Part shown: one piece after another, positions 1 to 59,373 of the stretch | How positions within the stretch are numbered: the stretch's first letter is position 1 | Layout: the number at the start of each line of letters is the position of its first letter | Source of the DNA: Takakia lepidozioides | Lineage: Eukaryota > Plantae > Bryophyta | Reading direction: 5' to 3' | Length of the DNA stretch: 64,000 nucleotides | NCBI GenBank assembly: GCA_030704615.1 | Contig: CM060732.1 | Location: forward strand, 77,066,001-77,130,000 | Notes under the pieces: generated by a model | The model's database searches: none | What the model was told of the DNA's origin: nothing | The model's input: the letters and a program-made list of their open reading frames with translations, nothing else | Position numbers and translations under genes: made by a program

Positions 1-260
1 CTTGCTTTCATAGGGATTAGGCCGGATTTGATCACCGGTCAATCCTAGAGTATGCTGTCGGTGGTGAGGCTGGAGTGATGACCAGCAAGACCACCAGTGT
101 TTCTTCTATGGTGAGGCTGGGTTGATGACCAGCCAACCATAGGAGTTCTTGCGGTGGATGCAGGTGCAGGTGCCCTGAGCCATTGGGATATGACCCTTAA
201 ACTGCAACAGGTGCCCACCCGTGTCACTATTAGATTAGTACTAGAGCCTTATAGTGTCAC

Positions 261-1810
261 GTGGAGGAGGTGCACATTGTGAGTGTCATTACGGAGTTAC
301 CCAAGGGTTTTGAGGGGAGTACGGCTACAGGCAGTAACAGTGAGAGTGGGTTCACAAGACGAGGTATTCGGTTCAGACCACCTTCACCGCCACCCTCAAT
401 TACTGTAGAGTCAGACACAGACTCGGAGGCTTCATCAACAGGTGTGCACTTTCATTCGCCATTGTTGTGGGACGACATGGAGGAGATGTATGGAGCTACC
501 AAGGGGCCTCGTAGGTACTCTGGAGCTGTGGGCACAATCGAGTTGGATGACTTTATCCAGGAGTTCGACAGCTGGTGTGATTTGCAGCAGATGCGCAATC
601 CACAGCTATTCACCCCATTCATGGCGTGGAAGGGACTGTTCCAGCATTTGGAAGGCCCGCCTATGGACGATTACCACGAGTTCAGGCGAGGACATGAAGC
701 AGAGATTGAGGAGTGGAGGATGTATTGGTCACCTGACTACGTCTCCATTACTCGAGGCACGACGCGACCAGTAGCTGCATCAGTACCAATAGCTCCCACT
801 GCCAGCACTAGTAGTGGAGCAAGTAGTGCTGGTACTTCTGCAGGTGGTACCAGTTCAAAAGGTGCTACTACTCCTCCTGCCACAACTACAACACATGTGC
901 CTAGATTCAACCCGGTGGTGGAGTTCTTCCAGGAGTTGCGGAGGAACTACCAAGGTGTACGGACAGAGAAGCTGCGAAGTTTGCAAGACTTCCAGCGCAA
1001 ACCCAGTGAGAGCCTGCGAGAGGCGTACACTCGTATGAGGCGCTTGATAAGTGTGACCCAAGGGGTTACTGAAGCTCAGGCAATCCAGTTTTGGTATGGA
1101 ATTCTGGACAAGGAGCTCAAGAGAAGGGTGCGAGATGCAACCCTGTTACAAGCAGCCCAACCCACATTAGCAGATGTGTTTCTGCTGGCTGAGCGGATTG
1201 AGCTCAACATGGTGGAGGAGCGAGTTGTTACAATTGGATTTGGCAAGGACATGCCTGTACGGGGCACAGCTGTCAGCCCACAAGCACAAGGGACTGCCCA
1301 ACAGCGTGGTCAGGGGGGCAAGGTTGCCCAGCCCAAGTTCCATGGAGCTTACAGGGGACCTCAGGTGCAGAGGCCCGTGGCATCTTTTGCAGGCCAACAG
1401 CAACCAGGGGTGATATGTTGGACATGTGGAGGACCCCATGTCAAGAGAGATTGCCCAGAGAGTGGCAGAAGGCCGGCACAAGCACAGCCTGCACAGTTGC
1501 AGTGTGGGCATTGTGGCAAGTATGGGCATGGAGATGCCCAGTGTTATGACTTGCATCCTGAGTTGCGCCCAGGCCAGTTCCAAGGGAACAATGGTGGCCG
1601 GGGCGAGGTGGACCAGCCCAGAGAGGACGAGGTGGTCGGGCACGAGGTGCAGGCCAAGGGCAAGCTCAACATGGCCAAGGACGCGGAGGTCAGGGTGTTG
1701 ACCAAGGCATGGCCAACCGGCTTCAGCAGCTAGAGCAGAGGCTCGCTGCCATGGCTATATCAGCTCGGGGTACCGGCTCCCAGGCGGGATGGTCCACCTC
1801 CTGCTCCTGA
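261..1810 (+). CDS. gag: Gag (capsid-like region, two zinc knuckles, RGG-rich tail), frameshifted
   Basis: ORF 261-1733 contains LQDFQRKPSESLREAYTRM (retrotransposon gag major-homology-like), CWTCGGPHVKRDC and CGHCGKYGHGDAQC. Adding one G at ~1603 gives RGRGGPAQRGRGGRARG...MANRLQQLEQRLAAM. First in-frame ATG is at 477. Confidence 0.85.
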
Positions 1811-2399
1811 GGGAGGAGATATGGGAGGCATGGGATTTATGTGCGGAGCAGCACTACCACTAGAGCAGGTGGAGTCTGCTGCAGCCGTGACTCGAGGAGC
1901 AGCACGAGTTCCTGAGCCACGAGGTGCAGAGGTGGAATTGGATCCACAGCGTGGGGAGGCAAGCCGTCAGGCAAGGCTTCCTCAGTCATTCACATTGGCG
2001 GAGACTGTGTCGACGCCATCCATGGCACCTAGTTCTCGCCCGACTGTTACCGAGGCGGAGGTTACTATGCCATTGGGGAGAGCTACACGTGCAGCACTGA
2101 CACCTGCTGCCAAGGCTAGTGCGGCCGGTGTGTTATTGGGGGCAGCCACCTCTGTGTGTCAGGCCCCACTGTTCTCGGCAACCATGATTGCGACGCCGGG
2201 GGTGAGACCAGCTGCAGTGTTCAGACTAGCAGCAACACTCTGTGAGAGTGGGGAGGTCACTTCATCTTCTGCGGAGTTAGTGGAAGGTGTAGTGGCAGAG
2301 GGATCCTCGGATTTGAGGGTCAAGACTGCCACGGCTGCGCCATGGCAAGTTGCAGCTGCCAGGTTGACGGAGCTGCCAGCTAGGCCAGCCATTGAGCGC

Positions 2400-2830
2400 G
2401 CCATGGTGACACCTGGAGTTGTCTTGTTAGACAACCAGGGAGGCATTTTCACTTTGAGTGGACCGGCAGGCAAGAAGTACCGGCCACTGCGGGTCTTGTT
2501 GGACTCAGGAGCTCAGCCACTGATGTTGGGCAGAGCTGCTATTGCAGGTTTGGGCCTCATGGAGGCGGATATGGAGCCTTGTCCTTTCCAGATACAGACA
2601 TCTCTGGGAGGATCAGAGCAGGCTCGCGGCATGACACGGCATCAGTTGGCTATTAGACTGCAGCCGGATCATCCTGTAGATGGCTCAGTGATGCGAGCCA
2701 AGGCCATTGTGACAGACGCGGTCTCTTACGATGTCCTCGTTGGTGGGGCAGTGTTATACCCCATGGGCTTCACCCTGGATTTCTGGGAGGAGTCAGCATC
2801 CTACAGGCCTGGATGGCAGTCAGGGGATGG
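2400..2830 (+). CDS. Retropepsin-type aspartic protease domain of pol
   Basis: VLLDSGAQPLML (D-S-G at 2502-2510) and the downstream YDVLVGGAVL motif in ORF 1821-3476. Confidence 0.85.
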
Positions 2831-3199
2831 TCGCCGTGCACAGCTCCCTGTGACATTCATTGGGGGTATTGCAGCTGCCCAGCGGGGCAAGATGCCAACA
2901 CTAGCCGCCTTCACAGCTGCAGTTAGTTGGCCTGGAGAGTTGCTGGAAGGCAATGCCCATGCAGAGGATGTGCCACCTCCAGCAGAGCAGGATGACATGC
3001 ATGGTACGGCGGAGTTGCCTGCCATGGTTGCTCACACTCCGTTGTGGGGTACGAGCAAGGATTTGCAGCAAGCTGCTGATGGACGGGTGCAACAAGCTTG
3101 GGGAGAAGCTTTTGTACCGTCAGGAGAGGAGGAGAGTGCGGTGATTGCACCAGGGCCACCTCAGTTGTCGCCATTGGACACCACACCTCTTGTGTGGCA

Positions 3200-4175
3200 G
3201 CGGCCGGATGAAGGCATTTGCCTTCTGGACTTGTTTGGCGGGATCAGCACCGGATTGGCTGCTGTGCTACAGGCAGGTGTGCGGGTAAGGCGTTACCTGT
3301 ATGTGGAGAGGGATGAGACTGCACGACGCGTCTCACTGCGCCATGTGGCTCAGTTGGTACAGCAGTACCCTGACTTGTTGCCGTGTCTGCAGTTCGTGGA
3401 TACCAACAAGCCTTGCCAGCAGACATTTCCTTGTTGGGGGCGCAAGATTTGGAGCAGGTTGGCTCCATTGATCTGATAGTGGCAGGTTGGCCCTGCCAAG
3501 GGCATTCATCAGCCGGGCATGGCAATGGATTGCGAGACTCGAGGACGGGTCTGTTTTGGGAGATGGTGCGGATTTTGCGCGCTTGCAGCTTCATCAAGCT
3601 GTATCTCCAGCATACATCTTGGAGAATGTACCACTGATGGGTGATTCTCGGGCCAGGGTGATGGCCAGTGTGCATCAAGTCCGGTCGTGGCTTGGGTCAG
3701 CAGTGTTGCTGGATGCAGCTGCAGTGGGGTCACGGGCTCATCGTCCACGACTATGGTGGACTAACTTGATGCCACCCGCACTGCTCAAGCGTGCATTTGA
3801 TGGGGGTGCAGCGGCCAGCACACCTCACCGTGGATGGCATTTTGGACACAGGAGGCAGTCTCAACGTGTGAGACACGATGACCGTTCGCCTTTGGCAGTG
3901 GTCAACAGGGTGGGTCAACCACGAGCAGCATTACCTACACTGCTCAGCTTCCCAGGATCCCATGCTTTTCGGGATGGTGGACCTGGCCTCCTGTGGGATG
4001 CTCAGTTGCAGCAGTTAGTTAGTGGAGCCTAATGCCGACGAGCGAGAGCGGGCTATGGGGTTTTCCACTGGGACCACGGCGGTGCCTTCTCTTTCTGAGG
4101 CATCACGTCGTCAGGTGTTGGGGCAAGCAATGGATCTCAATTGCTTGACCTGGATTGTCAGCTTGGCTATGGCTG
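3200..4175 (+). CDS. DNMT3-like C5 cytosine DNA methyltransferase domain embedded in pol (split by small indels)
   Basis: Motif I LLDLFGGISTG (~3222-3254), motif II RYLYVERD, motif III DI, motif IV DLIVAGWPCQGHS (catalytic Cys 3494-3496), motif VI ILENV (ENV 3622-3630), motif VIII AHRPRLWWTNL, motif IX ERERAMGF, motif X RRQVLGQAM. These are colinear with DNMT3 (SLFDGIATG / GGSPCNDLS / FENV / AHRARYFWGNL / EMERVFGF / RQRLLGRSW). Frame breaks at ~3383, ~3580, ~3803, ~3852 and ~4020. Confidence 0.93.
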
Positions 4176-4465
4176 AGCAACGTAGAGTGCGGAGTGCACT
4201 TCCCTTGACGGTCTCTCTGCCTACCGAGACGGTACAGGCAGCGAGTGGGGGCGAGCCGGTGAGGACCACGAGGTGTAGACATCCATGGCACACGTGGGAG
4301 GTGCTCGAGGTTCAGAGGGAGTTGGCAGCGAAGGCAGCTGTGATGGATGAGGTTGGGGATTCTTCTCGGGATGAGGAGGTTCTCAATGATGAGATGATGG
4401 GGCAGGATGAGGCCTTGTCATTGACTGAGCAGGAAGGGGGTACTGCTCAAGAGGTTGCAGCATAG

Positions 4466-5600
4466 CAACCACGGGACGCGTCCTCTACCTCTAAGCCCAC
4501 TGGACTTAAGGTTGCAGTTACGGAGGACAATTGGGAGCCTGACATTGGACCCATTGTCACCGGAGGAGAGAGACGACGTATACGGCGGTTCCTGAGGGCT
4601 TACAGGAATTGCTTTGCCTTCAGTTTGAAGGACTTGGGAGCACTGAAGGGTCAAGAGATCCGTATTGAGTTGGCCACTGACACGCCAATCTTTCGGAGAC
4701 CCTATAGATACAGTGACATGGAGAGGTCTTTGATTCAGATGAGGACTCAAGATCTCTGGGAGGCAGGTTTGGTGGAGCTCTCTGGTGGAGAGTATGCTTC
4801 AGCCACAGTGATGCCAGCTAAGAAGGATGTCTATGGCAATTGGACGGAGAGACGTATGTGCGGTGATTACCGGCCTGTAAATCGTCAGACCAAGTCCGAT
4901 AGGTATGCCATGCCAACACCAGAGGAGATCTTTGATGCCATTGGGCATTCCAAGGTCTTTAGCACGTTGGATTTACGATCCGGATATCACCAGTTGCCGA
5001 TCAAGGAGGCGGATAAGCAAAAGACGGCATTCTGGGGGATCAATGAGCACGGGAAGGATTGCCTATACCAGTGGCGGTTCTTACCATTTGGGCTTAAAAA
5101 CGCTCCCGCTGAGTTTCAAAGAGTCATGGACAGGATTCTAGCAGGGGTGGAGTTTGCTCGGTGCTACATAGATGACATCATCATCTTTAGTGCTACGGTG
5201 GAGGAGCATGAGAGACACCTTCAGGGGGTATTTGAGCGCTTGAGGACGCACGGATTGAAGTTACATCCGGGCAAGTGCAAGTTTTTCCACAACCAGATTG
5301 AGTATCTGGGTCACATGATATATCCTGGAGGATTGGGGGTACAGCAGACTAAGGTAGAGTCCATTGCACAGGTTCCACGCCCCACGGATGTGAGCCGAGT
5401 TCGAGCTTTCATGGGGTTAGCAAACTATTACAGACGGTTTGTTAAGGGATTTAGTGCCATTGCAAAGGCTCTAACCAAGCTGACCAAGGTGGACCAGGAG
5501 GAGTGGCAGTGGGAAGATGAGCAAGAACAAGCTTTTCAAGAGCTCAAGGCGAGGTTGACCTCGGCGCCCATCTTGAGACGACCTATCAGGGGCGTCCTTT
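4466..5600 (+). CDS. pol: Reverse transcriptase (gypsy type) plus connection domain
   Basis: RMCGDYRPVN, FSTLDLRSGYHQ, LPFGLKNAPAEFQ, YIDDIIIFS, KCKF...YLGH, RAFMGLANYYRRFV. The frame is open from 4466, directly after TAG 4463-4465. Confidence 0.97.
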
Positions 5601-5965
5601 TCAGCTGCATACAGATTGGAGCATGCTGGGGCTTGGAGCGGTGCTCACACAGGTGGATGATGAGGGAAGAGAGTTCGTAGTGGCTTATGCTAGCCGCTCG
5701 AACAATGCTGCAGAGTCTAAGTATAGCTCATATGAGGGAGAATGCTTAGCTGCAGTGTGGGCCGTGGCACACTTCAGGTGCTATCTATACGGCAATCTCT
5801 TCACCCTTGTCACGGATCACCAACCACTCAAGTGGTTGATGGAGTCAGACAAGCTTACGGGGAAGCTTGCACGGTGGGCACTCATCCTTCAAGAGTATGA
5901 CTTTCAGGTGGTGCATCGACCGGGTTTGGTCAATCGAAATGCAGATGGGTTGAGTCGCAATCCAT
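5600..5965 (+). CDS. RNase H domain
   Basis: After a 1-nt frameshift at ~5590: FQLHTDWSMLGLGAVLTQ...VVAYASR...YSSYEGECLAAVWA...LVTDHQPLKWL...RWALILQEYDF...NADGLSR. Confidence 0.95.
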
Positions 5966-6329
5966 GCACGAGCCAGCAGGATGACACTGGAGCTCGGTGG
6001 CATGGTGAGACGGACGAGGAGATGGTGCCCGGATGGCATGCATCTGCATTTCTGTGTATCTTGGCAGCGGAAGGCCAGGTTGGACCTACAACAGGGATGA
6101 CTGTAGATCAAGTGTCTGAGGACCCTGAGGCCAGCAATGAGCAGGGTGGCGCCAAAGATATACATGAGGATTCAGTTGTGTTGGACTACCTCCGCACTGG
6201 AGACACGGCAGCCACTGTGACTGCCAAGGAGAGGGATCGGATCCTACAACGAGCCAAGAGGTTCAAGTGGGAGGGGACACACCTGCTCCGAGTGTGGGAG
6301 GATGGTCGAGTGAGGATTGTGCCTCACCC

Positions 6330-7440
6330 AACACAGCGGGCACGGTTAGTGCGGCATGCCCATGAGGAGTTGGGGCATTTTGGGGTGCGACGCACTCATA
6401 GTCTACTGCAGGGGCAGTATTGGTGGCGTGGTATGCACACAGAGGTGCAACAATTTGTGGCTAGGTGCATGGTGTGTGACAGGGTGCGTGCTTCATTCAA
6501 CGCCCCTACTCCACAATTGCACCCTCTTCCGATCATGGGATTGGGCTACAGGTGGAGTCTTGACTTCGCAGGGCCGTTGCCACTGACCATGCGCACAACA
6601 AGTACGTGTTGGTGATGGTGGAGCACTTCTCCAAGTGGATTGAATTGGTTCCATTGCCTGATAAGGCTAGTGAGGGAGCTGCGTATGCATTCTTGGATTG
6701 TGTGCTTAGCCGATTCGGTGCTCCAGCTGAGGTACTCACGGACCAAGGGAGAGAGTTCTTGGGGGAGTTTCAGGCTTTGTGTGACAAGGCCTTGATAGAC
6801 CACCGCACCACTTCTCGGGATCATCCTGAGGCCGATGGCTTGGCAGAGAGAGTTGTTCAGACAGTAAAGAGGGGTTTGCGCAAGTATGGCTTGCAGAAGG
6901 GACACCTAGGAGATTGGGACCTTCAGTTACCCTGGTTAGCCATGGGCTACAGGTTCAGCAAGCAAGCATCACTTGCCTCCTTCTCACCATACTTTCTTCT
7001 CTTTGGCCGAGAGCCGGATTTGCCTACATCCATTCGCAGAGAAGCTGCTACAGTTCTTAACCTTGACGATCCGGACGTGTGGGCACGTGCATGTGAGCAG
7101 CGTGCAGAGTTGTTCAAGAGAGTCATGCCCATGGCTTTCGAGAACCTTGCCATTGCACAACACCGTGATACGTTGAGGTATGCTACCATACGTGGTGGGG
7201 GCTATCGTCCTGGGGTTCGGAGATTCAACCCTGGTGACTATGTCTATCTGCAGCAGACTGCTCCTACGACCCTGGATGTGACTGCAGGACGTGTTATTTT
7301 AAAGGGTTCGAGATGTCTTGCCCTCAGGCGTCTTGGTCTTGGAGGGTCGGGATGGCATAACTTGGAAGGACCATGTGCGTAATTGTGCGCCATGTCACCT
7401 TCCGAATGTCGATGGCAGGATTGACCCAAACCTGGCAGTG
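6330..7440 (+). CDS. DDE integrase
   Basis: HHCC zinc domain (HEELGH...CMVC), catalytic SLDFAGPL / LTDQGREF / GLAERVVQT, and FNPGDYVYL. Frameshifts at ~6592 and ~7302. Confidence 0.95.
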
Positions 7441-7451
7441 GTATCTGCAGG

Positions 7452-7595
7452 TTGAGGTGCATGTTGTGTGGGTCTGCTAAAGGGGCAGCCACCATGCTGG
7501 TGTGTGATCGATGCTCTAGAGGTTGGCATATGGGGTGCTTGACTCCACCTCTTGAGATGGTTCCAGATGGGGATTGGTTATGTCCACATGCATTG
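7452..7595 (+). CDS. PHD finger at the integrase C-terminus
   Basis: CMLC...MLVCDRCSRGWHMGCLTPPLEMVPDGDWLCP(xC) fits C4HC3. The last Cys is restored by a 1-nt insertion at ~7587 (TGT CCA CA- TGC). Confidence 0.88.
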
Positions 7596-7844
7596 GATAG
7601 TGGGAGTGGATACAACCATGGGAGGCTAACAAGCAACGCAAGGCCCAGCTACAGGAGACCTTGAATACACGAAGTCCTGGCTCAAGTTCACAGATTGCAA
7701 GACGGCGACTAACGATGGGGCTACTCTTGTACCCGGCCTCTTGGTCTATAGAGTTTGAGTACGATAGGGACAGTGATACAGGACTTAGTACGGCTATGGC
7801 TATTACGTCTTGTAGCTATCTGGAGGTAGAGGGACCTATCCACC

Positions 7845-7857
7845 AGCTAGGGGGGCG
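7845..7857 (+). promoter_or_regulatory. Polypurine tract
   Basis: AGCTAGGGGGGCG ends 2 nt before the LTR-initial TG at 7860. Confidence 0.75.
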
Positions 7858-7859
7858 AT

Positions 7860-8391
7860 TGTGGTAGACTACTTTATTGTGCATATATGTGTGGTGTGGT
7901 TTGGACAGCGATGTAGTTGTGTAGCGATATGTATGCGCACGACAGCTGTCAAGTTAAATAAGCACAGTGTGAAAACAACTAGCATAAAACTAGTTATTTG
8001 TATTTAACACTTGGATTTAGGTCAAGTGTTAAATCAGGTGTCAAGTTTAGTTTGACACCTGGTCCGTCTTATCTTCACGAGAGCGGCAGTCGCGCAGCTC
8101 ATCTCTCTCGAGTTGAGCCTGCGCGACCGAGCTCCTGTGTGCGTTTAGATCTGAGTGTACTCATGATGGGAGGTAGGTTGTGTGTGGGTGGAGTCCCCAT
8201 AGCTTGGGGTGCCCCTGGCTCGACTACTGTTTTAAAGAGTGATGGTTTTGGATTTCACATTGTTTCTTGTGTGGAGAGCAGTGTCATTTGTTAGCTTTCT
8301 TATCATTGTGGTAGACTACTTTATTGTGCATATATGTGTGGTGTGGTTTGGACAGCGATGTAGTTGTGTAGCGATATGTATGCGCACGACA
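7860..8391 (+). repeat. 3' LTR (532 bp) with identical 85-bp direct repeats at both ends (7860-7944 and 8307-8391)
   Basis: TGTGGTAGACTACT...ATGCGCACGACA occurs twice, identical by eye. TG/CA termini with an imperfect TGTGGT/ACGACA inverted end. Follows the PPT. Confidence 0.8.
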
Positions 8392-10344
8392 ACCAACATG
8401 TTAGTGAGGATTATGGAACCCGTGGTAAATTACAGTCCCCTACACTTGTCGTCGATGTCAACTAAGAACCTCAAAAGCAAGAGAGAAAGACATAAAGCAA
8501 AAAGAATCCTAATCACCAAAAGCACCTTGAGCGATTGGGGAAGATAATAACTGTGCGCCATCGCCACCAGCAAGCCACCTCCAGCACAGTTAAGGAGAAG
8601 TGAAGCATACAAGCATCCTTGCTAGGTTTAAGAAGGGAGAGAGAGATATTTCCCAACCCGAGCGCCGCCGCGAAGCATAAAAGCCAGAGGAGGGAAAGAG
8701 ACGATGCATTCACAACATTGTCTCCCGCCTGTGAGAAGAGACAAAACGCCGCCATTGCGCATCCCTAGGAGCTCGTCCAGCATGGATACAAAGCAGCAGA
8801 CAGGGTCGCAGCAAAACGCAGATGCCATAACTCTCATCCCGCAAGCTCAAAAGCACGAGGAGTGCTGCTGACGGCGGGAAAGACACCATAGGGCCATGCC
8901 CGATTTTTCATCCGTGCAGCATGAGTAATCAACACTACTTTTTTCGAAACCCGACGGATGTCATCCGTTAGCTAGGTTTAAACAATAGGTTGTAGGGTAG
9001 AGATTAGGGTTTCATTCCTTAATGAGCCATAATTAAGGATAATTAATTATTAAACAACAGTCCAGGGCCATCATAGGCTACATATTTCATCTAGTTCAGA
9101 TGAAAAAGTTAATAAGTTCATCCAGTTGGAGAAGGTTCGTCAATAGGATGGAAAAACAATACATAATATCCAAGGCAACGGTTTCACATCCTAACAAGTA
9201 ATTCAACATCCCCAAAAAAATGCCTCATCCAGTACGGAAAAAAGCCATGAAAGAGGAATAAACGAATTAATGGAAGGCTATAGCAGCAGTGGCTTAATGA
9301 TCGTCATACTCTGCACGATCGATGCTCTCTAGTATTAATAATACTCCTTTTCCTTCGAACCTGCTTGCTGGCTGTGGTATATCAGTGGGTTCAACCCCCC
9401 CAACCAGATATGTCATATCAAATGTTCGCAGGAACGATGGGGATACAGAGGCGGTCATAGCAAGGAGATGTGAAAACAGACGTGCAGGACATCGACATTG
9501 GGGTTGAATAAATGAACAGAAGAAACAACAGACAGTGACACACACAAACGCCACTGAATAGATGAAGATCAGGGATTGTGAAAGTACAGAAAGATCAGGG
9601 AGCCGCAATTTTGCAGCACGGGACTAAGATAGAGCCTTGTGGCCATTGACCCGCGCCCGGTGTGAGCAGAACACAAAGGGATAGAACCTACCTTTGTGAC
9701 ATCAAGACAACCATCCGTATTTCATTTGTGGGGCAAACCCAGATCCGTTGTATCTTGGGCCCAGATGTGCCTTCCAAAAAGAGAGCTGGGGGTACTGGAT
9801 CCCGGTACTCAGATTAGTGTATTTCTAGAAAAATGGATGGTCCTCTGACTGGGAATGGGTCGCATTTACAGCATCTCAAAACCAAGTAATCTATGATTTT
9901 TTCTCAAGCTAACTGAGTTTGGTGGCTTATAGCATTAATTCGGGCTGATATGTCCCAATTATCTTTGAATTGTGGCTATTAGTTCTGGCTAAATAAGTGA
10001 CATAATAACATTGTTCAGAGGCCCGATGAGAGGAAATCCAGCTAGGACTGGTCAAACAAGCTCCCAGCAGCCAATTTCTGACTAAATTGTAATAGTGGCT
10101 GATCCTAACTATTTTAACTGCTCTGTGGTGTACTGAGTAATTGGCCGTTTATGGAAGTTCAAAACTATTGGGAACTTGGTGGTGAACAATGCAAAAGAGC
10201 TACCTTCTGGATAATACCCTACCTTCCTGGAGACGTATGGTGTCAGGGATCCCTGGTAAGATAATGTGTTAAGGGAAAGGCTGATACAAGTGCATTGCTG
10301 GAACTTGGCTCTTCAAAAAATGCTGGCCCCTGAACTATGTTGAT

Positions 10345-12488: not shown

Positions 12489-12978
12489 TCTACGATCGCT
12501 ATGTAAAACCCCTCCGCGCTCAAGTTTCACGCGGGGACATCGTGATCTCTTCATCGTGATCGCTTCCCTGCCCGTTGCAAGACACCTGTCAGGCATTTCG
12601 GGCATACTCCAAGAAATTGACGACGATGACATGGCTACGAAACGTGGCGACGATGATGTGTCAGAGATGACGACATGGCTACGAAACGTGGCTACGTGGC
12701 GACGTTGACGTGTCGGAGATGACGACACGGCTACAAAACGTGGCAGTTATGATGTGGCGACGATGACGTGTTGGAGATGACGACATGGCTACGAAACGTG
12801 GCGATGATGACGTGTCAGAGATGACGACATGGCCACGAAACGTGGCAACGATGACGTGTTGGAGATGATGACATGGCTACGAAAACTGACGACGATGACG
12901 TGTCATAGGTGACGTGGCACTATGCACCCTATTTCGACTCTAAACTAGTCTCCGACCTTCGTCGTCTCTAGAACTTCC
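12489..12978. repeat. Dispersed repeat (copy 1) containing a ~44-bp minisatellite (~6-7 units, 12620-12915)
   Basis: Unit approximately GACGATGACGTGTCGGAGATGACGACATGGCTACGAAACGTGGC. The flanks (AAACCCCTCCGCGCTCAAG..CACGCGGGGACATC and GACGTGGCA.TATG.ACCCTAT...CTAGAA.TTCC) match 48046-48245. Confidence 0.85.
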
Positions 12979-26192: not shown

Positions 26193-27806
26193 TCAGGCAA
26201 CGGAAGAACCCCGGCCTCTGCGAAGTCTTGTGCCGCCGAGGAAATCTGGAGCCGGTCTTGGGAGTAGGAGTACTGCTGCGATGCCACCAAGAAATGCAAA
26301 GATGGATCCAAGCAAAAACGCGGGCAAATTTCCACCCCCAAAAAGCTCGTCCCAGGGACCACCTCCCACAGAGACCAACACTTGTGGCAGAACTACGGCG
26401 AGATTCATCAAACCCATCGACAAACCTTGACCACCACCAATTTTATCTGTGAAACTTGCTGTCAATGCATAAGGCACACTGTAAATCACTGCAAGTGGTA
26501 CTCCAAGCACTGCAAAAAGGACCACAGATGAAATCGTGACAGACAGAGGTGGCCCTGTAGGCCCAAAGGTAAGGGTTGATCGTTTTGCTGCTGTTGTGAT
26601 GAGCGCAGTCGCCGAAAAACAAGCTGCCAGTACCATGTTAGCCAGGCCCCACACATAGCTCGAACCCAATTTCCGGCAGAGATACTCAATTGAGAGCGAT
26701 GACAGTCCCAGCACTAGGGAATTGAGCATGAGACCGAGGGAACCCACGTGAACACCGTCTGCGTAGAGCTTCGAGACAAGCGGGTCTGAGGAAGATGGTT
26801 CGCCCCGGTACACCTCGCGTCCCATCCAATCAGTATCAAAGAGAAAAAATGGGTACAAGGCTATCCAAGTGAGTGCAGTTACAAGCATGATATACCACAT
26901 GGGCCGTGGGAGGTTCTTCAGTGCTTGAATCAACTCCCAGAACAACGCCTCCGAGTCCTCCTCCTCCTCATCCTCCTCATTCTCACTACCTCCCGAGACA
27001 CTTGCAGCACTCTTTGCAGCCTCTGGATCAGTGGGCTTTTCGGAGAGTAACGGGGTGGTAGAATCCGTGACCACATGCTTGCTGGCGATTGGATCCCATG
27101 GAATTTCCGACGCTGCTGTTAAGCTCACAAGAGTCGTAAACACCAGCACGAGGATGGCAAGGAGGAATGCAGATTTAAGATTGGCACAGGCAACATCACA
27201 TGCTCTTGTATACGTGAAGGGGAAGACTTTGTACCAACCACCGAAGGCCCCAGTAGCGTACCCCAGGACATTGCCTACAGCCATGAAGAGAGAATAGTAT
27301 GCATTCGCTCTTCGAGTTCGCCGTTGGTCCTTCCCAGTGAAGTCTGCCAACAGAGCTCGGCAGGGACCCTGCAACGTATTGTTAGCCAAGTCCAAGAGCC
27401 AGAATCCAACAACAAAAATGACGATTGCGCGCGGTCTGAAGCCAAGCGAATCCCCCAACAAGTAGCCCAGATCGGCAGCATACCCAATGACGAACACAGC
27501 AACAATTACAAGCAGGCCCCCCACAACTATGAACGGCCGCCGCCTGCCCCACACACTGGTGCAGCGATCGCTGTAATGCCCCACAACGGGCTGCACGAAC
27601 ATGCCCGAGATCGGCCCGCACAGCCATATCAAACTCGCCCACGCATGCGGAATTCCCAACTCCTGCACGTACGGCGTCAGCAGCGACAGTTGCAACGCCC
27701 ACCCAAACTGCACTCCCGCCGCCACCGACGCCACCTGCGCTAGCGCCCTCAACGGCACTCGATTCTTCCCTTTGTTGGACCTCCTCTCCCCCCCCTCCCA
27801 CCCCAT
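26193..27806 (-). CDS. Sucrose/H+ symporter (SUT/SUC, SUT4/type III-like), single exon, 537 aa
   Basis: VASVAAGVQFGWALQLSLLTPYVQELGIPHAWASLIWLCGP, SDRCTSVWGRRRPFI, DLANNTLQGPCRALLAD, FDTDWMGREVY, GGPWDELFGGGNLPAF. ATG at 27806; the extension upstream is (GA)n. Confidence 0.96.
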   Translation of the reverse strand: MGWEGGERRSNKGKNRVPLRALAQVASVAAGVQFGWALQLSLLTPYVQELGIPHAWASLIWLCGPISGMFVQPVVGHYSDRCTSVWGRRRPFIVVGGLLVIVAVFVIGYAADLGYLLGDSLGFRPRAIVIFVVGFWLLDLANNTLQGPCRALLADFTGKDQRRTRRANAYYSLFMAVGNVLGYATGAFGGWYKVFPFTYTRACDVACANLKSAFLLAILVLVFTTLVSLTAASEIPWDPIASKHVVTDSTTPLLSEKPTDPEAAKSAASVSGGSENEEDEEEEDSEALFWELIQALKNLPRPMWYIMLVTALTWIALYPFFLFDTDWMGREVYRGEPSSSDPLVSKLYADGVHVGSLGLMLNSLVLGLSSLSIEYLCRKLGSSYVWGLANMVLAACFSATALITTAAKRSTLTFGPTGPPLSVTISSVVLFAVLGVPLAVIYSVPYALTASFTDKIGGGQGLSMGLMNLAVVLPQVLVSVGGGPWDELFGGGNLPAFLLGSIFAFLGGIAAVLLLPRPAPDFLGGTRLRRGRGSSVA

Positions 27807-34169: not shown

Positions 34170-35405
34170 ATTGGACATAGTTCTTGGGCATGATGTGACA
34201 TTAACTTTTAACTGCGTAGGGTTCGAATTCTTTTTAAAAGGAGACCATTCTGCGTCTCCCGCTCTAAGGAGTGGTTCTTTCATGATTACTCCAGTTTTGT
34301 CATAACGAATTGCATCTAAAATGTGTGGCATCATGAGTTCCACCCGGTCGATTAACACACACATCCAAAAAACATTTGTTGTGGTCACATACACCTTGCA
34401 TCAATATAGAGAGCCCGCCTTTATGACAAAAAATATCCATGAGCACATACTTCACATCTGGTTGACGCCACAAAGGAATTTTGGATTTATCAAATGCTCC
34501 CCACATATTTCGAACTCCTGTTAAGTTCTCAAAACCTACAATGATGTCCTCTAAATAATATCCGGTAGGCAAAAATATGAACTGACGGTACATGTATGTT
34601 GAGGTATGTTGCAAGAACAACAGAATAAGTTTTGTGCAATTGGTCACAGTTGATGGTTCTACTCCCATAAGATCGGTTACTTTTCTCATGGACAAAGTTG
34701 TGTGCGAAGTCTAATCAAAACAAAGGCTACTACATGTTTAGGGTAAAGAGGGGTTCTCATGGTAGTGATTTGCTTTTCAATGAACGGTGTCAACAAGCTC
34801 ACCAATTTCAAGAAGTTGATATGAGTCATACGATATTCTTTTTTTCACCGTGAGTCGAGCATGCCATCTCCAAGCTATGGCCAAATTCGACAATGAATGA
34901 TCTCCCACAAAATGTACTGTTTAGGTAGTTTCCACCAAGCTTTACATTGCATCTCCATCTCTTTCTTCTTCTCTCCAAAGTGTTGCAAGCCATGGCAGCA
35001 AATATACAAAATATAAACAGAACGAAAGAAGAAACCCTTCCAACCCACATCTGAGCCAAAGACTAACAAAAAAACCAAACAAATATGAAACATGTACACT
35101 TAGTACTAACTCTCATAAATAGTTTGTACACTTAGTACTCTGCACAACTCTCATAAGTTTGTACACTAAGTACCTCCACAACTCTCATAACCGTACTAGT
35201 TTGTAACTTAGTACGAGCAGAGCTCTCACAAACACAGAAGCCACAAAGAGCTTGGGTGTGGCTAAACTCATATGTTGCGTCACATGTGCAATATCCCGTG
35301 TGAACGTGCTGCACCATCCGTCCCGTCCGTCCCCTTCCACATGTGTGGAGGGCCCGCCACTATGGCTGGACAGGACGGACGGATTTTTGCCATGTGAACC
35401 TCACT
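34170..35405 (-). mobile_element. Second, truncated PIF/Harbinger element with the N-terminal/central transposase on the minus strand (~34990-34170)
   Basis: EYRMTHINFLKLVELLTPFIEKQITTMR, RKVTDLMGVEPSTV, GAFDKSKIP, ILMQGVCDHNKCFLDVCVNRPGGTHDA. Terminus ...GGATTTTTGCCATGTGAACC resembles the one at 33713-33737. Confidence 0.8.
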
Positions 35406-37107: not shown

Positions 37108-38584
37108 TAGGGAATTCCAAAAAGGCCTTGATGTGAAATACATCGCAATTCACTTGATCACCCCCCCTAAAAGTGCGCAATTCAATTGAAATGTCTTTGC
37201 AATTCAATTGAACTGCTAAAACTAGCTTGAAAACAACCCTAATGTGCAATTCAATTGAATTGCCAATTCGCAATATATAATTTAACTTATTTTTTTAAAT
37301 ATAATGTATATACATGTGTGTATATATATATTCAAATTATACATATACGCATAAAAAAATGTAAGCTGAAAATATATGTTGCCGGTCTATTCTTGTTGCC
37401 CGTCTATCTATCTTTGCCCGTGGTAAGGCTTGAGCACGAGATAAGCCTAAGGAAGAGCGAGAGAGGGAGAGAGAGAGAGAGAGAGAGAGAGGAAGTCACG
37501 AAGCGCTTGCCCTAAAAGCGGGATTGTCCCTCTTTGTGGATGTTGGTGCCAATATATGGCTATGTACATATACCAAACATGATACCAATGTAAGAGTATC
37601 AATGTATAAGAGTTTGATATATTAAACTTGTATGGAACACACATCCCAACTTCAACATGGTACCTTTGTAAGGGTATTGAAACAATATTATTTTTGATAA
37701 TTCTCAAGATGAACAGATCATTTGTTTTCTTTGGGGTTGTGTCGTGGCCAGATACTAGTCTTAGGGGACTACATGATGAGCTAGAGAGGGAGAGAGATCA
37801 ACAACTTCCTGTGATTCACTGGCAAAAAAAACATGGTTGGCTCTGAATGAAACAGACAAAATTAAACCTGACAATTGTTGACAGGCTTTCCCTGTATCAT
37901 CATATAGTCCCCTGACAGTAGTATCTGGCCCCACGACACAACCCCAAAGAAAACAAATGATCTGTTCATCTTGAGAATTATCAAAAATAATATTGTTTCA
38001 ATACCCTTACAAAGGTATCATGTTGAAGTTGGGATGTGTGTTCCATACACGTTTAATATATCAAACTCTTATACGTTGATACTCTTAATTGGTATCATGT
38101 TTGGTATATGTACATAGCCATATATTGGCACCAACATCCACAAAGAAGGACAATCCCGCTTTTAGGGCAAGCGCTTTGTGACTTGCTCTCTCGCTCTCCC
38201 TTAGGCTTATCTCGTGCTCATGCCTTACCTTGGGCAAAGATAGACAGACGGGCAACAAGAATAGACCGGCAACATGTATTTTCAGCTTATATTTTTGTAT
38301 GCATATATGTATAATTTGAATATATACATATATATACATGTATATACATTATATACAGAAATAAGTTAAAAATTATATATTACAATTCAATTGAATTGCC
38401 AATTCGCAATTCAATTGAACTGTGTGCCGACAATTGAATTGAATTGCAAATTAGGGTTGTTTTCAAGCTAGTTTTAGCAGTTCAATTGAATTGCAAGGAC
38501 ATTTCAATTGAATTAGGCACTTTTAGGGGGGTGATCAAGTGAATTGCGATGCATTTCACATCAAGGCCTTTTTGGAATTCTCTA
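37108..38584. mobile_element. 1477-bp non-coding foldback element (two ~670-700 bp inverted arms) with 6-bp TSD CCTGGT
   Basis: 37108-~37790 is the reverse complement of ~37890-38584 along its whole length. Termini TAGGGAATTCC / GGAATTCTCTA. CCTGGT at 37102-37107 and 38585-38590. Confidence 0.9.
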
Positions 38585-45639: not shown

Positions 45640-47370
45640 CAGGTATTGGCAATCTCCCTTTCCTCTCTGCATCTGGAAATAAGTTCAGGGAAGTTCTATG
45701 CCCCACGTCCCTGCTGTGCATACCCTGCAAGCATCGCGCTCCACGACACCACGTCTCATTCAGCCATATTGTTGAAAACTGCCTTTGCATCCTTAATGCG
45801 CACCCACATTTGGCCTACATGTCCACCAGGGCAGTGCTCAGAATGACATCTGGTACAATTCGAGCTTTGACGATGTCACCATGGACCTCTTTCCCCTTTT
45901 CCAGGGCTGCCAGGCTTGCACAAGCATTGCAAACGCACACAGAACGTGATGTGGACTTCACCCCTTCCCCCATCATTTGCTCATAGGTCTCCAAGGCCTC
46001 CATCCCACGCCCCTGATGTGCATATCGTGCAAGCATGGCGTTCCATGACACCAAATTGTTCAGAATCACATCTGGTACAATTGCAGATTTGGTGATGCAA
46101 CCATGCACCTTTTTGCCCTTTCCAGGGTGCCAGGCTTGCACATGCACTGCTCTGCAATCACTTCTCTCGATTGTGGATTGAGATCTCCAAGCCAATCATC
46201 CAACTCACTTGGATTCTGCCAGAGAGTTTTACTTAGTCAAATGAGTGAATATCATGAACAAAAAACTGTCAAATGTTTCTCCCATTTAAAAATCATTTGA
46301 GTGCAAACTCAGGGTAACCCCAAACTCTAAAATCGATGTAATAAAATCGAGTTTCCACCAATCAATCCAAGGCTTAGGCAATAGATAACCATGGGAAATT
46401 TGCAGCCAAAGCTTTCTTGAAGAGTAATGATGGTCATGTGGCAATTGACAAATCTGCTCACAGCTTTCACAAAATTTACAGAACACAAAAAAGGTGCATT
46501 GCATACAATGATAAGATACACAAGATCTGTAACACAACACACAAACGTTATGTGGTCGGGCTTCACCCCTTCCCCCATCATTTGCTCATAGGTCTCCAAA
46601 GCCTCCATCCCGCCTCCATCCCGCGCCCCTGCTGTGCATACCCTGCAAGCATCGCGCTCCACGGCACCACATCTCGTTCAGCCACAGTGTTGAACACTCC
46701 ATTGGCATCCTCGGTGCACCCACATTTGGCATACATGTCCACCAGGGCAGTGTTCAGAATGACATCTGGTAATCTGACAGGCATTCACCTTTTTGCCTCG
46801 GTTGTCATCCTGCCAACATTATATTCCGCGTGATCAAAGATCGTTGAGGCATTCTGTTGAACACTTGGTGAGCATCCATGATGCTCCCACGCTTAACATA
46901 CATGTTGACAAGGGTGTTGAGTAGAAAAACATTTGGCGTGAATCCACTTTGGATAATGTGAGTGTGCACCTGCTTTCCAGCTTCCAGACCTTCCATCTTG
47001 ATGCACTTAAGCAAGTGACAGACATACGTATCTGAATCTGCTGCAATGCCTCCTTGGTTTAAAGTCTGTAGAGCCTCTGTCAGCCCGCCTGCCGCTCAAA
47101 GCATCTTCACATGCCCAGAAGTGCCAGAAGAGGCATTGTGGACATGGTTGAGGTGCCTGATTTTATCAACTATGCCGCTGCAGCTGCTGCCTTTAGTTGA
47201 CCATCTACTCATGCAGGTTTGTTGTAGCTGTTGATCCACAGGGAATCACATGTAATCTGGAGCTTGAAATCTGCCCCTCTTAGATGAATCTGGACCCACA
47301 CTCTATCCCTGCTCCTCCATGCCTCTGCACAAATCATGCATACATCCTTGCCTTGCTGCTAGCAGCTGAC
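45640..47370 (-). pseudogene. PLS-class pentatricopeptide repeat gene remnant, frameshifted and internally duplicated
   Basis: LEAGKQVHTHIIQSGFTPNVFLLNTLVNMYVKRGSIMDAHQVFNRM, NTALVDMYAKCGCTEDANGVFNTVAERDVVPWSAMLAGYAQQG, ACASLAALEKGKEVHGDIVK. No E/DYW domain seen. Confidence 0.88.
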
Positions 47371-48045: not shown

Positions 48046-48245
48046 TCTGCGATCGGTGTGAAACCCCTCCGCGCTCAAGCACGCGGGGACATCATCCCTT
48101 CCCTGCGCTGCAAGAGAACGGTTAGTTTCGGGCATCTCGGGCAGATTCCAGAAAATTTGATGACGATGACGTGGTGACGATGACGTGGCATTATGGCACC
48201 CTATACCTGCTCTACGCTACACCTTCGGTCGTCGCTAGAATTTCC
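48046..48245. repeat. Dispersed repeat (copy 2 of 12489-12978) with the minisatellite reduced to ~2 partial units
   Basis: Shares the flanks listed for copy 1, in the same orientation. Confidence 0.8.
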
Positions 48246-57800: not shown

Positions 57801-59373
57801 ACCTTTGCCAAACCCAAGCCCATCCATACCATGGTTGCTGCCAAGGCAAAGGATGCGTTGCCCCAACCAGCACTTGCATTGCAACGCAACAAAATCATGT
57901 CCAGGTATCCAGTGCCATTGTGGTTTTTTTTTAATGTTAATGGTCTCTCCTCTCCAGATTGGAAATGGTGTATGTACGACATTGCACATGCATTGACATA
58001 TTGGGCTCTTGGATGTGCAGGATACATGAAGGCCTCGAAAACGTATTGTGAGTTGCGACGCATGTGCACCCTTTTTCATGCATGATATGGTATACCTTCC
58101 ATCCACAGTTTGCAAGTCACGGCCCGCATGTGCATAATTATGTGGGCGGATTCTCATAGCAATGAGGTATGTGCCTTTTTTGCAGGCGGGCCAGTGGTGC
58201 AGTGGTGGCAAAAACACATGACATATGGTTTTTGAAGGGCTCTCGGGTTTCGCAAGTTCCTCTTAGACTAGAAGATGCAGATGACTTGCTCTCTGCAAGG
58301 GGGTGGATTAGTGACCGTCTGATGGACTTCTGGGTGTCAATTAAAATATTTTCTCTTCCTGAACATGTGTGCAATAAAATCCATGTTGTAGATAGCTTCA
58401 CATGGATATGCCTTCACGATCATTGTGCAAAGCAGACAAATCAAGTCGACTCTGTGCGGATTTGGATGCAAAGACGGTTCCCCTTCTTCAGGAGTGAGGG
58501 TGTTGAAGCCCTTATTGTGCCAATTTTATGCAAGTGAGTACAATGTGTATGCATTTCTACCTTCTTGTTGTCGTACCTTTGAAGAAGGTCGTGCTCCATT
58601 GCTACATGTCGACTAACCGGCTATTGTTGCCCCCCTGTGCAGTGACCATTGGAGTCTGGTTATCTTGGAACCGTCTCGCTACCTTCACTTGAATAGCATA
58701 AGAAGTTTGCACAAGTACCGTGCTTTCAAGCCATTGTTTGCTACTTTCTGGGCCATGGTCAGAGGAATCAGCGCAGGAAGCCCCCAGTGGAAGGATGCGA
58801 CTGACCTCAAGCGGTGGTTTTGCCCGCCTGTTCCACAGCAGGCCAACACATGGCAGTGTGGTCTGTTTGTAGCTCATTACATTGAGCTGTACTTAGTGCA
58901 AACGTACCTGAATCCACAACCTGGTGGTGCAGGCCCGGTAAGAGGCAGCTGCTCGTGGTTTACATGATCATTTGCTGCCTATTTTAGTTGTGGACGTTCA
59001 TGTGCTCGCGCAATGTGCTGAATCCATGTATCAGGTAGAATGAACATGAATATCCTTACGAAAATTGTATGCATTTGTAACAATGATCATTGCTTGTTCA
59101 TTGTTTGTTTTTGCATTCTTTGTTCTTCTTTCTTTGCAGCTCACATCAAACTGGTTCCCTACTGAGGCCGTGCGCAAGAAAAGATATGAACTTCAAGACA
59201 TGATTTTGCACGAGCTTGACGGTCACCCATCGCACGAGCCTCCATATGTAGTGCCCAAACCCCCACGCAAAGTTGGAGATTGCAGCAGCCCTGTCCTCCC
59301 TGTGGCCACCACTCCAGCTCCCCTCACACGCAGACGGTGTAAACGAGCCAGGAATGTCAGCAAAGCGTTGTGA
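54897..59373 (+). pseudogene. Multi-exon, partly disrupted gene with an N-terminal C2HC zinc finger and a C-terminal Ulp1/SENP (peptidase C48) domain. Protease exons 58186-58533, 58643-58937, 59140-59373
   Basis: FKCIHCLKQYKDKKKLNIHRINGC; GWISDRLMDFW..IHVVDSFTW..LIVPILCN|DHWSLVIL..YLHLNS..VPQQANTWQCGLFVAHYIE|..NWFPTEAVRKKRYELQDMI. Stops and frameshifts occur in the 5' half. Confidence 0.75.

Follow-up and report, generated by a model that had tools for sequence, protein, structure and literature searches.

A window of 64,000 nucleotides from the genome of Takakia lepidozioides (contig CM060732.1, positions 77,066,001 to 77,130,000 of the forward strand) holds a Ty3/gypsy retrotransposon that carries a C5 cytosine methyltransferase of the DNMT3 kind. 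This enzyme is a trait of the family, widespread in bryophytes and green algae, and not a one-off acquisition, and it is under purifying selection between lineages. In the clade of the window it lies in a first open reading frame (ORF1) together with Gag and protease, and the family plan is Gag-protease-DNMT3, a likely leaky stop codon, and then reverse transcriptase (RT), RNase H, integrase and PHD finger. We propose a reading, to which we assign a probability of about 0.5, in which expression across this stop would supply a packaged DNMT3 at the level of Gag, and the enzyme would likely methylate the cDNA of the element itself, either before integration or during it. For this family the DNA methylation activity, its substrate and the readthrough itself are predictions made by comparing sequences.

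The methyltransferase and the element that carries it

Positions are given in the numbering of the window throughout. The element occupies 1-8391 on the + strand, with its 5' end upstream of the window. An earlier note on this DNA, which confined the element to 1821-4465, drew it too narrowly, as gag starts before 500 and the 3' end lies at 8391. Pfam matches and alignment to intact relatives identified the following domains, and the order gag-protease-RT-RNase H-integrase, with an integrase of the DDE type, is that of Ty3/gypsy elements:

276-1810, + strand: gag, with a capsid-like region, two zinc knuckles and, after them, a segment rich in Gly and Arg (PF03732, E=0.0013; homology of the relatives from 276)
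2424-2861, + strand: aspartic protease, catalytic DSG at 2502-2510 (PF13975, E=0.03, a weak match; frame shared with the start of the methyltransferase)
3210-4177, + strand: DNMT3-like C5 cytosine methyltransferase, motifs I-II-IV-VI-VIII-IX-X unpermuted, with five frame switches in the window copy
4178-4462, + strand: acidic linker, poorly conserved, closing ORF1
4463-4471, + strand: TAG CAA CCA, an in-frame stop plus CARYYA hexamer, the readthrough context of tobacco mosaic virus (TMV), kept in the family
4466-5964, + strand: RT (YIDD at 5165-5176) and RNase H, sharing the frame of the stop (PF00078, 6e-33; PF17917, 2e-36; frame switch near 5585)
6289-7440, + strand: DDE integrase, comprising the H2C2 zinc domain, the core and the C-terminal part (frame switches near 6595, 7310 and 7450)
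7452-7610, + strand: PHD finger closing the integrase (PF00628, 2.8e-11)

The methyltransferase lies after the protease and before the RT, on the + strand, and all of the motifs that the earlier note had reported there in DNMT3 order were located: I (LDLFGG, 3225-3242), II (YVE, 3300-3308), IV (GWPCQ, 3485-3499), VI (ENV, 3622-3630), VIII (RAHRPR, 3733-3750), IX (ERERAMG, 4040-4060) and X (LGQAMD, 4118-4135). The key residues checked are present without exception (13 of 13), including the catalytic Pro-Cys, ENV and RxR, and the HMMER comparison that had been suggested matched the motif IV piece to PF00145 (E=5.5e-12). With the intact Marchantia protein P0001 (BBN08134.1, methyltransferase domain at residues about 879-1200) the pieces of the domain share 62-76% identity over motifs I-VIII and 87% over motifs IX-X, far above chance. 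The description of the domain as in frame and inside the polyprotein did not hold, since it is spread across three frames, with switches near 3380, 3580, 3800, 3850 and 4015, and the stop at 4463-4465 intervenes before the RT. As assembled, the whole window copy is frame-broken, with about eleven frame switches.

When the intact relative L020, a metagenome locus, was used as the query, a sequence search of PDB returned DNMT3A/B/C as the first 29 of 40 matches, colinear with the query, followed by HaeIII and HhaI. A model of the domain from Calypogeia protein P0158 (predicted local distance difference test score, pLDDT, of 73) gave DNMT3A as the top Foldseek match (E=7e-13), and the 39 rows listed were all DNMT3. 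With the host enzymes DNMT3A/3B/3C and plant DNMT3 the domain shares motif order and fold, but it is devoid of the PWWP and ADD domains, of the plant N-terminal domain and of introns, and the identity in the structural alignment is about 21-24%. Capture of a plant DRM was considered and rejected: DRMs are circularly permuted, with motifs VI-X before I-V, whereas the window enzyme runs from I to X, as the earlier note had maintained.

A metagenome scan yielded 79 loci; L075, a match to a bacterial or phage methyltransferase, was dropped. The catalytic Cys is kept in 64 of the 66 loci that cover the site, and the Glu and Asn of ENV and the FxG that binds S-adenosylmethionine (SAM) are retained across lineages. 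Among three largely intact copies (L020, L022 and L064) the ratio of nonsynonymous to synonymous substitution rates (dN/dS) is 0.10-0.13 for the methyltransferase and similar, 0.08-0.16, for the protease; between land-plant lineages it is 0.06-0.17 for the methyltransferase, a rough figure with dS near saturation. These ratios, together with the retained Cys, differ from the combination that had been named in advance as contrary to the claim, that is, a ratio near 1 with the catalytic residues lost. Sibling dead copies gave 0.47-0.82, which is the decay expected after insertion, and these values were therefore left out as evidence on selection.

In gag the earliest in-frame ATG is found at 477, and the frame switches near 1600 and 1780-1810. 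The Gag homology of the relatives begins about 70 codons upstream of this ATG, so that within 255-476 translation may begin at a codon other than AUG, or an ATG may have been lost. At the other end of the coding region, the PHD finger had been missed in the first reading. The solved PHD fingers nearest to it are those of CHD4, PHF12, DPF3, KDM5B, ATXR5 and PHF21A, and the fingers of CHD4, DPF3, KDM5B, ATXR5 and PHF21A are readers of histone H3 unmodified at lysine 4 (H3K4).

The stop codon between methyltransferase and reverse transcriptase

The stop at 4463-4465 separates the methyltransferase ORF from the RT and is in the same frame as the latter. The earlier note had assigned the methyltransferase to one ORF with the RT; instead, the Gag-protease-methyltransferase ORF ends at a conserved stop followed by CARYYA. 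We surveyed this junction in 80 sequences (the 79 metagenome loci and the window), the anchor at the start of RT being readable in 46. A stop followed by CARYYN was present at the homologous place in 37 of these 46 loci, window included (29 of 36 distinct contexts), and the perfect CARYYA in six of the 46; the background in these loci, taken over all stop triplets, is 0.86% for CARYYN and 0.29% for CARYYA. The proportion of 37 in 46 overstates independence, because the copies share ancestry and different samples have in some cases yielded one and the same insertion. The stronger argument is the conservation of the hexamer at the nucleotide level despite changes of residue: CAACCA (window, L012 and L043), CAGTTA (L020 and L022) and CAATCA (L064) encode Q-P, Q-L and Q-S, respectively. 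These diverged lineages vary only at the degenerate positions of the hexamer; their flanking codons differ, and synonymous sites are near saturation (proportion of synonymous differences, pS, 0.63-0.78).

The intact plan is seen in L020, where a frame of 1369 codons for Gag, protease and methyltransferase is followed by TAG CAG TTA and a frame of 1047 codons for RT, RNase H, integrase and PHD finger; in L064 the second frame likewise has 1047 codons. Among the clade proteins in databases that include motif X, 35 of 42 stop 60-200 residues later without RT, although many of the 42 are near-duplicates and one gene model is spliced to the integrase. ORF1 ends 95 residues after motif X in the intact Marchantia proteins and 113 residues after it in the window. 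The first Met downstream of the stop is codon 85 in the window, inside the RT, and codon 117 in L020, and homology to RT starts near codon 50. Folding (without pseudoknots) of the RNA 3' of the stop at five junctions gave z-scores of -0.25 to -1.67, and no structured signal of the murine leukaemia virus (MuLV) type was found. Judged from these alignments, the stop at 4463 is a feature of the family and not damage.

TMV and other plant viruses use a CAR-YYA hexamer after the stop as their readthrough signal, with an efficiency of about 10% (PMC2194720, PMC2754532). The stop context of the family is the same as that of the type I signal of TMV (UAG-CAR-YYA), and in both it shares its frame with the ORF of a polymerase; type I readthrough in plants has been put at about 10%, with 6-10% in stable Arabidopsis lines (PMC2754532, PMC2194720). 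The retroelement stops reported in these papers are located at gag/pol or pol/env (Tca2, MuLV and SIRE1, and candidates in rice gypsy elements), whereas in the window family the stop comes after protease and methyltransferase, both of which are thus on the abundant side.

Distribution of the family, its termini and its surroundings

The earlier claim of a land-plant gypsy element carrying a DNMT3-like methyltransferase was supported by the domain order and by relatives in liverworts and Sphagnum. Marchantia polymorpha contains at least five intact Gag-protease-methyltransferase proteins of 1278-1281 residues, and a protein search gave 13 matches to this arrangement in M. polymorpha and Sphagnum fallax. 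Further named relatives of the methyltransferase are from Calypogeia fissa, Marchantia paleacea, Riccia sorocarpa, S. troendelagicum and S. tenellum; among the 120 of 612 matches that were listed, none of those with a name is from a vascular plant. Protein P0230 is 96% identical to two pieces of the window copy and keeps motifs VIII-X in a single frame, whereas identity between the window element and the sampled Sphagnum-like families is only 70-72%. A search of the whole library gave 264 clusters at E up to 1e-30. No relative was found among viral contigs, and no RNA sequencing run was among the runs listed as containing sequence of the element.

In all 43 metagenome loci that hold a protease followed by an RT, the methyltransferase lies between them, covering at least 200 of its 322 residues in 40, a count biased by the fact that loci were recruited partly by the methyltransferase pattern; the earlier note had considered that other members might lack the domain. 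The contigs of four public runs cover the methyltransferase like the rest of the element, and in one of them, X2 (91,881 contigs aligned), the summed depth, which is not a copy number, is 0.70-1.15 million over the methyltransferase vs 1.00-1.11 million over the RT. These data bear on the explanation that the window records a one-off capture of a piece of host DNMT3, a chimeric contig or contamination, to which the frame-broken state of the window copy could lend some credit. We regard it as having next to no chance, since it is refuted by the family-wide architecture: the same arrangement is found on chromosome-scale assemblies of Marchantia, Calypogeia and Sphagnum, one contig from a second organism spans 2905-7866, and the flanks of the element are intron-containing land-plant genes.

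The two B repeats at the 3' end of the window copy are identical, and a public contig of 2173 nucleotides differs from the window by only 5 substitutions, which suggests that the copy is young and that its family was active recently. Since many indels are present in so young a copy, part of them may be assembly errors. At the positions of the frame changes in the window, other copies in public contigs are of different length.

Three arrangements of the methyltransferase were found. In the clade of the window it follows the protease and is followed by the stop. In a second one, protease, methyltransferase, RT, RNase H and integrase share a single ORF, as in Closterium (Zygnematophyceae; P0289, P0342, P0282 and P0425) and other proteins. 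In the third, the order is RT, RNase H, methyltransferase, integrase and PHD finger, found in many proteins (P0048-P0085, many of P0278-P0415, and L058:557-3178), of which the sole named one is a Monoraphidium fragment; this group is likely from chlorophytes, and we found no published description of a methyltransferase between RNase H and integrase. Closterium and Monoraphidium are the named algal relatives, no named Klebsormidium sequence being among the matches. Quick, unrooted trees of methyltransferase and RT, built from element-borne enzymes without outgroups, agree with each other. Support in the Shimodaira-Hasegawa-like approximate likelihood ratio test (SH-aLRT) was 99 (methyltransferase) and 96 (RT) for the clade of window, liverworts and Sphagnum, and 98 and 99, respectively, for the branch with the stop-split elements on one side; the RT tree unites these with the single-ORF Closterium type (100). 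A second domain, resembling amino-methyltransferases, is located after the PHD finger in three of 48 long-tailed relatives (P0055, 1729-1790; P0086, from 1808; P0340, from 1423). It shows DPWxGxG...SPWF and, in P0055, a match to phrog_799 (E=0.0037); such a combination of DNMT3 and a DAM-like domain in one element recalls, yet differs from, the EpiLTRs discussed below.

The ends of the element are split repeats and not one ordinary long terminal repeat (LTR) per end:

7849-7857, + strand: purine run directly 5' of B1, probably serving as the polypurine tract; L020 and L064 have similar G-runs there
7858-7944, + strand: repeat B1, 87 nucleotides, ending in GACA, identical to B2
7941-7950, + strand: palindrome GACA-GC-TGTC at the B1/A2 junction, kept in L008, L020, L029, L058 and L064
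7947-8304, + strand: repeat A2, starting with TGTCA; its partner A1 would lie upstream of the window, as in L008, L029, L039, L050 and L061
8305-8391, + strand: repeat B2, the 3' end of the element (..GACA); the next four bases, ACCA, are the would-be target duplication

The full arrangement A1...B1-A2-B2 was found in L029, L039, L050 and L061, and B1-A2-B2 in the window. The relatives begin with TGTCA and end with GACA, giving TG..CA termini, of which the window shows the 3' one only. Target duplications of 4 bp flank five of seven two-ended copies (L021, L029, L039, L046 and L061), L043 matching at three of four bases and L050 being unreadable. The termini, the duplications and the split repeats together imply integrase-driven integration and a replication unlike the ordinary two-LTR route. 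An element with a tyrosine recombinase (DIRS, PAT or Ngaro) was rejected, as Pfam gave rve and H2C2 integrase domains and zero recombinase matches. The palindrome GACA-NN-TGTC at the B1/A2 junction is retained even in L058, whose methyltransferase precedes the integrase; it is thus conserved across distant groups, and it resembles a pre-formed joint of two integrase ends.

The flanking genes named in the earlier note were all recovered: COPA (PF06957), IFT122 (PF25295), pentatricopeptide repeats (PPR) and a sugar transporter resembling SUT, with a match to the major facilitator superfamily (MFS); WD40 repeats were also found. The presence of IFT122 beside PPR and sucrose-transporter-like genes, at the gene density of the window, indicates a seed-free land plant, and a bryophyte is likely given that liverworts and peat mosses supply the nearest named relatives of the element. 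The sucrose-transporter-like gene (26196-27806, - strand) is one long exon, and in the PPR gene (45700-47100, - strand) the repeats are duplicated internally and broken in frame. On its 3' side, at 8400-9400, the element is followed by a second repeat of lower abundance, where depth falls but exceeds the background. The window also contains a long inverted repeat at 37108-38584 (arms of about 640 nucleotides, 87-98% complementary), resembling a miniature inverted-repeat transposable element (MITE) or a foldback element; a 44-nucleotide tandem repeat array at 12613-12938, related to 48153-48195; and two likely relics of DNA transposons, namely a fragment of Ulp1 protease (PF02902) among unannotated ORFs at 58166-58964 (+ strand) and a weak Harbinger-type DDE fragment at 34303-34710 (- strand). 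No tRNA genes were found in the 64 kb.

Predicted role of the methyltransferase

According to the reading proposed here, the full-length RNA would be translated mostly into Gag-protease-methyltransferase and, by readthrough, into a minor amount of full polyprotein. The methyltransferase would be dosed at the level of Gag, about ten times that of RT, because the conserved stop lies after it and before the RT, and a readthrough of about 5-10%, by analogy with TMV, would give 10-20 methyltransferases per RT. The Gag-protease-methyltransferase protein would co-assemble into the particle, where the protease may free the enzyme to methylate cytosines of the double-stranded cDNA. The PHD finger of the integrase, resembling readers of unmodified H3K4, could then steer insertion away from active promoters. 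The new copy would arrive methylated, with host maintenance enzymes keeping the mark, and this pre-methylation may limit the harm to the host or hide the copy from sensors of unmethylated DNA. As to the origin of this plan, we suggest tentatively, and with the balance tipped slightly against it, that a streptophyte Gypsy clade, which reached liverworts and mosses, shifted its readthrough point behind a captured DNMT3, which would have brought methyltransferase to capsid level in each particle and delivered densely pre-methylated cDNA to H3K4-unmethylated chromatin.

Several points weigh against this reading. In nine of the 46 loci the motif is missing from the anchored position (two by single C-to-T changes, the rest being decayed or from a more distant element). 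In the largest sampled family, which is Sphagnum-like, the stop is TAG or, often, TAA, and the hexamer is CAACCC, which departs from the consensus by one base and weakens the readthrough context (junctions of L008, L032 and L041); in this family an ATG stands two codons after the stop (CAACCC-ATG) and in L064 a Met is found at codon 14, so that reinitiation is possible there. The context of the Candida Tca2 gag-pol stop gave no readthrough in yeast (PMC2194720), and a stop between ORFs is therefore not proof of readthrough. The ratio of observed to expected CpG in the element is 0.48-0.53 vs a host background of 0.50-0.51, so that no sign of self-methylation is seen in the base composition. 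In yeast, no methylation was obtained with the Gypsy enzyme of Klebsormidium, a result its authors considered inconclusive (PMC5890265). Finally, the single ORF of Closterium and the group with the methyltransferase between RNase H and integrase imply that dosage at the level of Gag is not required for retention of the domain.

Part of this evidence would also fit the explanation that the cDNA is methylated but that translation of ORF2 depends on reinitiation, on splicing or on a second transcript, the hexamer being a relic. In support of it are the early ATG of the Sphagnum-like family (codon 3) and of L064, the Tca2 precedent, and four Marchantia and Sphagnum gene models that join methyltransferase to RT by splicing (P0002, P0003, P0007 and P0013). 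We consider it improbable, as these spliced models lack RT residues that are conserved and appear to be artefacts of gene prediction, no Met precedes the RT in the window or in L020, and four lineages vary the hexamer only at its degenerate positions. The yeast result, on the other hand, would agree with a domain kept for a non-catalytic role or one not involving DNA, such as binding or shielding of the cDNA or methylation of the RNA genome, and a dose at the level of Gag would suit a structural coat. The conservation of the catalytic Cys, the ENV residues and the FxG across lineages, and a fold and best matches that are those of the DNA enzymes DNMT3A/B, make this explanation equally improbable.

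A further possibility is that readthrough operates as proposed but that the surplus enzyme acts on chromosomal DNA, either at the insertion site or on existing copies in trans, as a brake on copy number. An excess at the level of Gag would surpass the enzyme needed for one cDNA, the integrase with its PHD finger could carry the methyltransferase to chromatin, and a slowing of transposition beneficial to the host was raised in the discussion of the algal elements (PMC5890265). This explanation appears unlikely, though the least so of those considered, since fusion to Gag points to packaging, as established for retroelements, and the very high abundance of the family in its host (91,881 contigs in one run) speaks against a strong brake.

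The closest described element is KnitGypsy-Dnmt3 of Klebsormidium nitens, with Gypsy domains, DIRS-like repeats and an intronless Dnmt3 with Ka/Ks under 0.2 (de Mendoza et al. 2018, PMC5890265), whose DNMT is said in the peer-review file of that paper to share an ORF with RT and RNase H; later papers cite this find as 'streptophytes'. Both have Gypsy domains, split repeats of DIRS-like form, an intronless unpermuted Dnmt3 and purifying selection; compared by description only, they differ in that the methyltransferase of the window family ends a Gag-protease ORF before a readthrough-type stop and its host is a land plant. Gypsy-7a_cRei and REM1 of Chlamydomonas are likewise Gypsy elements of the green lineage that have a PHD finger and whose terminal repeats are subdivided, but the accessible text reports no methyltransferase for them, and the PHD finger of Gypsy-7a precedes the integrase whereas that of the window follows it (PMC9940879). 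SymbioDIRS-Dnmt3, SymbioLINE-Dnmt and the EpiLTRs are also retrotransposons with C5 methyltransferases (PMC5890265; bioRxiv 10.64898/2026.05.21.726589), but they belong to other element classes or carry a DNMT4-sister enzyme, in other hosts and at other domain positions. SymbioDIRS-Dnmt3 is active on CG; in yeast, the DNMT3 domain of a dinoflagellate DIRS element, expressed on its own, carried out de novo methylation of CG (PMC5890265), a result in favour of our reading. The part of REXdb available mentions no methyltransferase. We found no report of a gypsy element with a DNMT in a land plant, or of a link of such elements to readthrough, in a literature search that covered few subscription papers. 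What is new here is the extension of the Gypsy-Dnmt3 kind to land plants, together with a conserved readthrough-type stop that places the methyltransferase on the Gag side.

The first methylation of a new transposon copy is usually ascribed to host pathways, namely RNA-directed DNA methylation (RdDM), DNMT3 and the chromomethylases (CMT). If our reading is true, an element that supplies its own de novo methyltransferase, at a dose tuned by readthrough, would reverse this view, and the transposon would write its own silencing mark, an idea of self-methylation that was raised for algae in 2018 (PMC5890265). Bryophyte proteomes contain 'DNMT3' models that belong to such elements and may be taken for genes of the host; in mutants of the host methyltransferases, an element that is expressed could be a source of additional de novo methylation. 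The uninterrupted Gag-protease-methyltransferase proteins of Marchantia polymorpha allow these predictions to be tested in a genetic model for which methylome data exist.

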